Origin: a virus
Lineage: Duplodnaviria > Heunggongvirae > Uroviricota > Caudoviricetes
Strand: one strand, 5' to 3'
Virus record (IMG/VR): IMGVR_UViG_2713896791_000021
Length of the DNA: 8,851 nt
The position numbers were made by a program, and so were the translations under genes. The notes beneath the pieces are model-generated. The model did no database searches, had not been told where the DNA came from, and worked only from the letters and a program-made list of their open reading frames with translations. Below, one piece after another: positions 4,551 through 5,957 of the stretch (positions within the stretch are counted from its first letter, which is position 1; each line of letters opens with the position of its first letter).

Positions 4551-4590
4551 NNNNNNNNNNNNNNNNNNNNNNNNNNNNNNNNNNNNNNNN
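4551..4590. other. Assembly gap (run of 40 N)
   Basis: 40 consecutive N characters. The flanks are the 3' side of dicF and the 5' end of dicB, so the true length of the dicF-dicB spacer is unknown. Confidence 0.99.
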
Positions 4591-4607
4591 NNNNNNNNNN
4601 TCACAAA

Positions 4608-4664
4608 ATTCACTTTAAAAAGGGCGGCAGAGCAGTCACGGAGTAAAACTGATACCGCCAAATG
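4608..4664 (-). ncRNA. dicF: DicF small regulatory RNA (Hfq-dependent sRNA targeting ftsZ and other mRNAs)
   Basis: Minus-strand sequence UUUCUGGUGACAUUUGGCGGUAUCAGUUUUACUCCGUGACUGCUCUGCCGCCCUUUUU matches my recollection of DicF at all but about one position. It ends in a GC-rich stem (GGCGG...GCCGCC) plus U-run intrinsic terminator and sits between ydfC and dicB as in Qin. Confidence 0.8.
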
Positions 4665-4926
4665 TCACCAGAAAATTGATAACAGAGGGCGTTGTAGCGG
4701 GGTTGTCACTTAAGTGTATGGTCAACCTGACAACCCGGTGCATTTTCTGGAGCAATGGAGGAAACCCCAGCCATACTTACCGCCGCGCCATTTCGCGGAC
4801 TGCCACAACCGGAAGCGCACGGTCGACGAAAATTTAACGACAGGCTATCTATGAACCAGCTACCTCGCCGTACGCTTTCGCGTTGTGTGCCTGCTTTTAA
4901 CCACGTCAGGCGAGGTGGTTCCTGTT

Positions 4927-4955
4927 ATTCCCCAACAACAAGAAATTTGTATAAT
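4927..4955 (+). promoter_or_regulatory. Candidate sigma70 promoter (perfect -10 TATAAT at 4950-4955, TG immediately upstream, weak -35) pointing toward the 5100..5444 ORF
   Basis: tttgTATAATctgg at 4946-4958, with -35 region tattcc (weak). Flanked by 16-bp direct repeats CCCCAACAAC(A/G)AGAA(A/G) at 4930-4945 and 4964-4979. Confidence 0.3.
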
Positions 4956-5099
4956 CTGGATATCCCCAACAACGAGAAGAGTATGTAACGTGATAGTTGA
5001 GTTCTCAGCAGCAATGTCGGCAATCAAAGAAACTGCGGTAATGGCAAAGGGTATTCTGAATGCAAAACTCAAACTGAGATAAATTCCGCTGTCAGCGAT

Positions 5100-5444
5100 A
5101 TGCTTTCAAAACTTACGTCTGTTCAGTTTGAATGCGTATCGCTCATTGAGATGGTGCGCTCTTATCAGGAAGAAGCCGCATCTCTCAAAGCAAAAATTGC
5201 AGAGATAGAAGACTTTCAGCAACAGGCGGAAGGTTACAAACTTAACAAGCTTGATTCTGGAACTCTTGTGTATTCCAAGAAGCAATTTATAGGCGATACC
5301 GAGATAACAGTGCATCTTTGCCCACAATGTTTTGGAAAAAAGGTAATATCTGTACTGCAACCAATGGAAATAATGCGCTTTGATGCTCATTTTCGTACTT
5401 TTTGCCCCGCTTGCAATAATAAGTTCTGGATGAACTCAAGATAA
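5100..5444 (+). CDS. Hypothetical 114-aa protein, N-terminal coiled-coil plus C-terminal C4 zinc ribbon (CPQC...x17...CPAC); no recognised family
   Basis: ORF on the strand opposite to the dicB operon. Visibly AT-rich with many ATA/CTT/AAA codons compared with its neighbours. The antisense frames are aromatic/hydrophobic junk, while this frame is protein-like (EEAASLKAKIAEIEDFQQQAEG; HLCPQCFGKK...FCPACNNKFW). No convincing SD before ATG 5100. Confidence 0.35.
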   Translation: MLSKLTSVQFECVSLIEMVRSYQEEAASLKAKIAEIEDFQQQAEGYKLNKLDSGTLVYSKKQFIGDTEITVHLCPQCFGKKVISVLQPMEIMRFDAHFRTFCPACNNKFWMNSR

Positions 5445-5559
5445 TTAACCGTTTAAATAAGTTGGGACTATCCAGATTTTTAAAGAACGTGCCGGATGCT
5501 CACCCGTGTCCGGCGCACGCACTCCACCTGACCCGTAGAGAACTCCTTAATTACCAACC

Positions 5560-5799
5560 TTATCCTCGTTGGTTAGCTATTAACGCGGGTATGTAATCAT
5601 TCTGGCAATGCTTAATGCCGCTGCTTTTTCCAAATTGGTGATATCCTGCTCCAGAGCGGACAGATTTTTCAGCCTGCTTAGCCCTGGCTTCATTGGCCCA
5701 TTTCAGATCCTGCGCTGCATTAATTTTCTGGCGCATCCACTCATAAAGTTCATCATCGGTATAGTCTGGCGCGATGATGACGGGTTCTCGTTTATGCAT
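5560..5799 (-). CDS. ydfC: YdfC-like small prophage protein (dicB operon)
   Basis: 79-aa ORF with GAGGAA 5 nt upstream of ATG 5797-5799, in the position of ydfC between ydfB and dicF. Family assignment is by operon position plus vague sequence recollection. Confidence 0.65.
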   Translation of the reverse strand: MHKREPVIIAPDYTDDELYEWMRQKINAAQDLKWANEARAKQAEKSVRSGAGYHQFGKSSGIKHCQNDYIPALIANQRG

Positions 5800-5846
5800 A
5801 CTGATTCCTCGCGGTGCTGTTTCGCTTATCAGCCGTTAGATTTTGC

Positions 5847-5957
5847 CTAACTGGAAAGCGCCTGTTTAAACTCACTGAAGCTGAGAGCCTCTTCGCCTTC
5901 GGCAAGGTCTTCGAAGTATTCTTCGTAAGCCTTTTCCATGATTGTGTCGAAATCCAT
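5847..5957 (-). CDS. ydfB: YdfB-like small acidic protein (dicB operon)
   Basis: Not in the supplied track (too short). Manual translation from ATG 5955-5957 gives MDFDTIMEKAYEEYFEDLAEGEEALSFSEFKQALSS, then TAG (5847-5849). AGGTGA SD sits inside the ydfA 3' end, and ydfA stop and ydfB start are arranged as TGATATG. In-frame upstream GTG (5964-5966) or ATG (5997-5999) could extend it. Confidence 0.65.
   Translation of the reverse strand: MDFDTIMEKAYEEYFEDLAEGEEALSFSEFKQALSS

Follow-up and report, generated by a model that had tools for sequence, protein, structure and literature searches.

The window, a stretch of 8,851 nucleotides, belongs to a lambdoid prophage of the Qin/dicB type, of which it covers the early-left region. 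Genes for integrase, excisionase and exonuclease, a DUF1482 gene, dicB, DicF, ydfC, a DUF1391 gene and a dicA-like repressor gene lie on its minus strand, and cro-like, ydaT-like and replication genes lie on its plus strand. Positions 4602-5620 are 100% identical to E. coli O45:H2 FWSEC0003 and 99.9% identical to O103:H2 strain 12009. We focused on a plus-strand open reading frame (ORF) of 114 aa at 5100..5444, which runs from ATG to stop on the strand opposite to the dicB operon. An earlier, sequence-only reading of this DNA had described the ORF in this position and orientation, and both the ORF list and the PGAP annotation bear it out; in the identical genomes the product is hypothetical protein WP_001399959.1.

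The left neighbour of the ORF is the DicF sRNA, matched on the minus strand at 4622..4673 by Rfam RF00039 (77 bits, E=4e-16). The DicF 5' end had been placed at 4664, and this match moves it to 4673. The right neighbour is a ydfC-like ORF on the minus strand (5560..5799; ORF list and annotation of identical genomes), and PGAP treats ydfC as a frameshifted pseudogene that ends at the K-12-equivalent stop, 5580. The ydfC-like ORF encodes 79 aa; the PGAP frameshift corresponds to 220 nt here versus 219 nt in K-12, a second single-base lesion less than 700 bp from the frameshift described below. Another plus-strand ORF, of 77 aa at 4755-4988, is annotated by PGAP in FWSEC0003 (WP_071529670.1) and absent from the annotation of strain 12009. 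It gave no match in the PHROG search, overlaps the K-12-conserved stretch upstream of dicF and is probably spurious. Between dicF and dicB, a 50-base run of N at 4551-4600 replaces the 144 nt of the true spacer found in an identical genome (L001 3856-3999), so the two sides of the mask are in truth 94 nt further apart than the coordinates show.

The AlphaFold model of the 114-aa ORF (pLDDT 93.7) consists of a long helix (residues 2-43) followed by a beta-rich, four-cysteine zinc ribbon. An N-terminal coiled coil and a C-terminal zinc ribbon had been predicted from the letters, and the confident models support a long helix with such a ribbon after it. The spacing first given for the cysteines, x17, needs correction: the pattern is CPQC-x24-CPAC (C74/C77/C102/C105, with codons at 5319-5321, 5328-5330, 5403-5405 and 5412-5414). 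The ORF had also been called AT-rich relative to its neighbours. Its GC content of 0.397 is indeed below that of the whole window (0.467) and of the immediate flanks (0.53-0.59), but the AT-richness is modest, and dicB with the DUF1482 gene also stands at 0.402.

The long dicF-ydfC spacer

From the DicF 5' end to the K-12-equivalent ydfC stop, the spacer measures ~906 nt here compared with ~341 nt in a K-12-type strain, an excess of ~565 bp. The sequence-only reading, which took this spacer to be longer than in K-12 Qin, was right on this point. It had suggested an alignment that would reveal any insertion with defined boundaries, and MAFFT and BLASTN comparisons with the K-12-like locus L003 and with L004 located one. 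Homology to K-12 extends from 4602 to about 4884/4898 and begins again at 5489, and the intervening plus-strand module, at about 4885..5488, occupies ~600 bp where K-12-type Qin prophages have ~30-45 bp. The module comprises an upstream region, two gene fragments and a 3' flank. The query region was matched at least partly in 4,319 of 5,426 complete E. coli genomes and the long spacer was present in 59 of the 5,426; the module is therefore missing from about 4,260 of the region-matching genomes. Its absence from K-12 Qin and most dicF-bearing prophages agrees with the earlier suggestion that the ORF might be accessory cargo, a moron.

At the left edge of the module is a 37-nt element (4888..4923, plus strand) that contains a 6-bp hairpin, AACCAC-N10-GTGGTT. 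BLASTN found 97% matches to this element at L004 2058-2094, L006 2691-2727 and L013 2298-2334. At these other places, in other dicB-type prophages, the element is followed after ~35 nt by an unrelated gene of the ECs_2282 family, also on the opposite strand. It may be a promoter or leader shared by morons, or a recombination joint for them. The ECs_2282 family, a putative zinc-binding protein, aligned with the family of the window ORF at an hhalign probability of 46% over 45 columns that covered the cysteine pairs alone.

A perfect TATAAT hexamer on the plus strand at 4950..4955 is a candidate -10 element for a promoter belonging to the gene itself, 35 nt upstream of a GTG codon at 4990. Four of the five loci that bear the module share this hexamer, and across all five the mean column identity is 95% over the 110 nt that precede the GTG. 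No consensus -35 element accompanies the hexamer, and a consensus scan of 4600-5900 detected no complete sigma-70 promoter. RNA folding and the alignment place a strong 11-bp hairpin (5489..5516) precisely at the right-hand junction of the module; it is also conserved in K-12, and no U-run follows it on the plus strand. The flanks of L004, L005 and L006 carry other cargo beside ydfC or ydfA in the form of HigB/HigA-like and RelE/RelB toxin-antitoxin pairs, and the early-left region of these prophages is evidently an accessory-gene hotspot.

A split gene and its intact alleles

JNE131328 has a gene of 171 aa with this position and orientation. DNA alignment with this gene showed that the window lacks one A, with a run of four (A4) at 5064..5067 on the plus strand where intact alleles have five (A5). 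Upstream of ATG 5100 the homologous frame runs on in a shifted frame as far as GTG 4990, and restoring the missing base produces a 151-aa ORF that begins at this GTG. The 114-aa ORF corresponds to residues 38-151 of this ancestral product. As it stands, the window has an N-terminal fragment at 4990..5082 (plus strand), which begins with the GTG and consists of 26 native codons (VIVEFSAAMSAIKETAVMAKGILNAK) and 4 out-of-frame codons before a TAA. This stub of 30 codons ends at 5082, 18 nt before ATG 5100. The ORF that had been taken for a whole gene is thus the remnant left by a frameshift in a 151-aa gene.

The repaired reading is present exactly in three database proteins (P0001, P0005 and P0007), and KFu019 has an annotated, intact 151-aa CDS that starts at the equivalent GTG. 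The alleles of KFu019 and Ecol_545 differ from the repaired window protein by 1-2 residues and carry 3 synonymous changes. Allele-specific searches found this N-terminal variant in 29 E. coli genomes, of which 17 are frameshifted and 12 are of intact length, a class defined by the 77-nt length and read at protein level in two of the 12. The 76-nt A4 form occurs exactly in 16 genomes, and a seventeenth has a form of equal length. Among named serotypes, the A4 allele is found in O103:H2, O45:H2 and O121 STEC. Because the rest of the gene is undamaged, the lesion appears to be recent.

A chance ORF, or a sequencing error in a homopolymer, could in principle create such an arrangement, and the lesion does fall in a homopolymer run. 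The 16 exact copies of the 76-nt allele and the seventeenth of the same length come from independent complete genomes, however, and this makes an A5 run in these strains unlikely; the ORF also has strong family matches, given below. We assign an artefact a negligible probability. The A4 lesion is real and common to a set of near-identical prophages. Programmed frameshifting or transcriptional slippage that would rejoin the two frames is unlikely at the A4 run, which is too short.

The family of the repaired protein is mosaic. P0005 combines the N-terminal 63 residues of the window variant with a different zinc-ribbon domain, and P0003 and P0004 combine a different N-terminus with C-terminal 76 residues identical to those of the window.

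Rip1 relatives in other phages

The protein family was identified by profile and structure searches. The 114-aa ORF matched phrog_1244, a PHROG family listed with unknown function, at E=3.5e-38, and its match spans positions 39-147 of the 157 in the profile; for the repaired protein, E was 2.3e-48 and the span 6-147. A family profile built from a 56-sequence alignment matched PDB chain 9oox_L, the Rip1 protein, at E=5e-18 (profile 5-152, chain residues 15-160), and single sequences reached the same chain at E=4.9e-6 for the ORF (phmmer) and E=2.8e-7 for the repaired protein. The 9oox entry is a cryo-EM structure of Rip1 of phage HK446 with the T6 small terminase. BLASTP to HK446 gp37 gave 23% identity over 141 aa (E=1e-10). 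The AlphaFold model of P0004, which shares its C-terminal 76 residues with the window protein, has a pLDDT of 91.4. In Foldseek, P0004 reached TM scores of 0.67/0.75 to the 9oox chains and the window ORF 0.75/0.69, in both cases with prob 1.00; the window ORF superposed on 9oox_M with a TM score of 0.75 over 111 columns. For P0004 and the window ORF alike, Foldseek against the PDB found no match beyond the 9oox chains, all others having E>0.2.

A profile search and structure prediction of the 114-aa product had been put forward earlier as a check on the ORF, and their outcome is the Rip1 match of 9oox (E=4.9e-6, TM up to 0.75). The view that the product belongs to no recognisable family and may be undescribed does not survive the phrog_1244 match and the solved Rip1 structure. 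On these sequence and model comparisons, the window gene is best classified as a diverged member of the already known Rip1 family.

Rip1, or ring interacting pore, was described in 2026 as a prophage defence that consists of one protein, and is reported for phage HK446 and for a Pseudomonas prophage; the following points come from a 2026 review (PMC13434031, section 5) on Patel et al. 2026 (Nature 651:1060). Rip1 alone is not toxic, and the trigger is the ring-shaped small terminase or portal of the infecting phage. [quoted passage not shown] In the cryo-EM structure, 12 copies of Rip1 surround an 11-mer ring of small terminase and contact it through the C-terminal half of the protein, while the N-terminal part is an amphipathic helix. 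The N-terminal helices form a membrane pore, as seen in dye release from liposomes, and lysis occurs prematurely, before progeny mature. Homologues of Rip1 are described there as widespread in proteobacterial prophages (PMC13434031). The one-line descriptions of Rip1 in a conference report and a Nature Communications paper are in agreement with this account; the companion Nature paper leaves Rip1 unmentioned.

Across the 56 aligned sequences, the N-terminal ~100 residues are strongly conserved and the four cysteines are invariant, while the loop between the cysteine pairs and the tail are hypervariable, as expected for a putative target-recognition surface. The close relatives form 84 clusters, nearly all of 150-175 aa, and the wider family has 2,522 representative clusters (E up to 1e-3). 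Among the best 150 of these 2,522 representatives, nearly all have 145-180 aa and a match that starts at about profile position 1.

Other assignments of the ORF were considered and fell short. Pfam, NCBIfam and PADLOC gave no credible family for it, and in PADLOC-DB v2 (2023), which predates Rip1, the repaired protein had a weak, coiled-coil-type match to a SLATT model (E=0.005) and the ORF had none. Weak matches to SLATT_5, DnaJ_CXXCXGXG and TerY_C did not reach the cut-offs and resemble the background that coiled coils or zinc ribbons produce. The JGI label of P0001, 'predicted nuclease with TOPRIM domain', is unsupported by Pfam or the fold search. A DksA/TraR-type regulator was considered for its coiled coil and C4 finger; Pfam zf-dskA_traR gave no match at E up to 1, and no DksA or TraR structure was among the Foldseek matches.

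Similar to the window ORF, the homologues lie opposite to their neighbours in all the backbones examined: HK446, HK620/HK630, JBD30 and PhiR29_2. HK446 Rip1 (gp37, YP_007111990.1) is part of the pL operon region, where it has a ral-like gene on one side and N on the other, and shares with the window gene the N-terminal helices, the C-terminal four-cysteine zinc-ribbon domain and the position of a lambdoid phage gene opposite to the early-left operon. The two are similar in size (164 aa for HK446 Rip1, 151 aa for the ancestral window gene). They differ in neighbours (ral-like/N in HK446, dicF/ydfC in the window), and the window copy is split by the frameshift and lacks the equivalents of about residues 1-47 of HK446 Rip1. 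HkaP of HK620/HK630 (NP_112049.1) was found by tblastn at 30% identity (E about 6e-13) and matched 9oox at E=2.4e-10. Its gene, again on the opposite strand, is flanked by cIII and N and, in contrast to the window copy, is intact at 164 aa. Its label, 'putative superinfection exclusion protein', rests on position only, and a literature search for hkaP returned unrelated papers alone. In HK620 the annotated leftward terminator tL1 (L007 3579-3602) lies inside the hkaP coding sequence, on the opposite strand.

SieB-type exclusion genes are accessory defence genes of the early-left region of lambdoid prophages, a point also made in the HK620 annotation note. SieB is a membrane protein, whereas the window family has a zinc ribbon and no predicted membrane span, and no sequence relation between SieB and this family was found.

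Further homologues were present in Pseudomonas Mu-like phages, namely JBD30 gp30, DMS3, D3112 orf25 and MP38 ORF25, with ~25% identity to the window protein. JBD30 gp30 matched 9oox at E=1.5e-19 and is encoded opposite to its neighbours, with the small-terminase-like gp29 on one side and TerL on the other, the location given for Pseudomonas Rip1 in PMC13434031. These homologues differ from the window gene in phage type and in their late-operon location. The homologue in PhiR29_2 is on the opposite strand and adjoins cI. The terminase hotspot that holds the Pseudomonas Rip1 homologues is also the site of Tab (JBD26 gp31), a tail assembly blocker encoded by a prophage moron on the minus strand with its own promoter; lysogens express Tab constitutively, and its action on virion morphogenesis proteins comes late (PMC10884400). 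Tab is unrelated to the window gene: it has 83 aa, blocks tail assembly via the tape-measure protein, needs an anti-Tab partner and, unlike Rip1, has neither a zinc ribbon nor a pore. The Pseudomonas homologues are neither Tab, a different 83-aa protein, nor Zip, which is JBD26 gene 61.

The opposite-strand placements of the homologues in four other backbones, together with the absence of the module from most related prophages, fit the accessory-cargo interpretation. They also bear on the proposal that the plus-strand gene mainly modulates the dicB operon, acting on DicF and DicB by convergent transcription or antisense RNA. The gene is indeed convergent with the ydfC-dicF-dicB transcript and sits between ydfC and dicF, and its upstream region is highly conserved. 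Opposite-strand homologues nonetheless occur in phages that have no dicF (HK446, HK620/HK630, JBD30 and PhiR29_2), the module is missing from about 4,260 of 4,319 region-matching genomes, and conservation across the 2,522 representative clusters is at the amino-acid level, which implies selection on the protein and not on an antisense RNA. We regard modulation of the operon as the main role of the gene as highly improbable. Since the same arrangement is found without dicF in HK446, HK620 and JBD30, a dedicated antisense role against dicF/dicB is unlikely, and the convergent arrangement appears from these comparisons to be the usual habit of the family, with no particular tie to dicF.

Predicted consequences of the frameshift

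We consider it probable that the 114-aa ORF represents the last three quarters of a Rip1-family defence gene, carried as an opposite-strand moron in the dicB operon and inactivated by a frameshift. The gene sits in this orientation in the early-left (dicB) operon of a Qin-type lambdoid prophage, and deletion of one base, from A5 to A4, has split its 151-aa frame into the 30-codon stub and the 114-aa ORF. The remnant would be poorly translated because it has no Shine-Dalgarno sequence; anti-SD pairing is -0.3 kcal/mol before ATG 5100 compared with -3.0 before GTG 4990. Pore function would also be defective, since the N-terminal segment with the highest hydrophobicity and conservation is gone. 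The 37 missing residues hold 12 invariant or near-invariant positions of the 56-sequence alignment, and hydrophobicity is highest over the first ~25 residues in the repaired protein and in HK446 Rip1 alike. The complete N-terminal helical segment is absent from the window ORF and present in the intact alleles of related genomes. The remnant keeps its zinc ribbon and has lost only a part of the long helix. It covers ~111 of the 126 residues that are resolved for the Rip1 chain by cryo-EM, and the whole ring-binding domain falls within its match to that chain. From these sequence features the locus is probably a recently inactivated defence gene. The remnant is otherwise undamaged and is modelled as a well-folded unit; it may have residual or altered activity, for example ring binding without a pore, and ribosomes that finish the upstream stub may reinitiate on the 114-aa frame.

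A stronger version of this last point is that the 114-aa product is made and functional, either as a shortened Rip1 that still defends or as a sensor-only, pore-less variant that would cap the rings of terminase or portal. The ORF is uninterrupted between its ATG and its stop, has a confident model that superposes on most of the resolved Rip1 chain, and retains all four cysteines and the hypervariable, target-facing loop. The A4 allele is present in 17 genomes of several serotypes, the TATAAT-bearing upstream region is conserved, and with the stub ending 18 nt before the ATG, reinitiation is conceivable. These points must be set against the absence of Shine-Dalgarno pairing before ATG 5100, the loss of the 12 conserved positions and the most hydrophobic segment, and the rarity of truncated forms among the best 150 of the 2,522 representatives. 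As the lesion is the only difference from the intact alleles, the intact state of the remainder is uninformative on selection. We judge a functional 114-aa product to be unlikely and favour an inactivated Rip1 gene.

If the gene has been inactivated, the change need not have been neutral, and the truncated product or the loss of Rip1 might be advantageous in heavily polylysogenic STEC. We think this quite improbable. If it were true, intact Rip1 might abort the induction of co-resident lambdoid or Stx prophages, triggered by their terminase or portal rings, and a pore-less remnant that binds rings could be a decoy or a non-lytic capping inhibitor. Among the genomes listed, the frameshift allele occurs mostly with 6-7 dicF-type places and intact alleles with 1-3, a pattern that may reflect a single ancestral event.

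In RefSeq the ORF is a 'hypothetical' protein that PADLOC v2, Pfam and NCBIfam do not recognise, and a Rip1 assignment would give it a testable function. To a specialist this will be unsurprising since the publication of Rip1, and the window copy is probably inactive. The gene family, with its 2,522 representative clusters, has members in dicB-type, HK-type and Mu-like prophages. For work on dicF, the long spacer of the O103, O45 and O121 STEC prophages would be attributable to cargo and not to DicF biogenesis. Finally, the A4 and A5 alleles, one base apart, would constitute a natural experiment on the conserved N-terminal 37 residues of Rip1.
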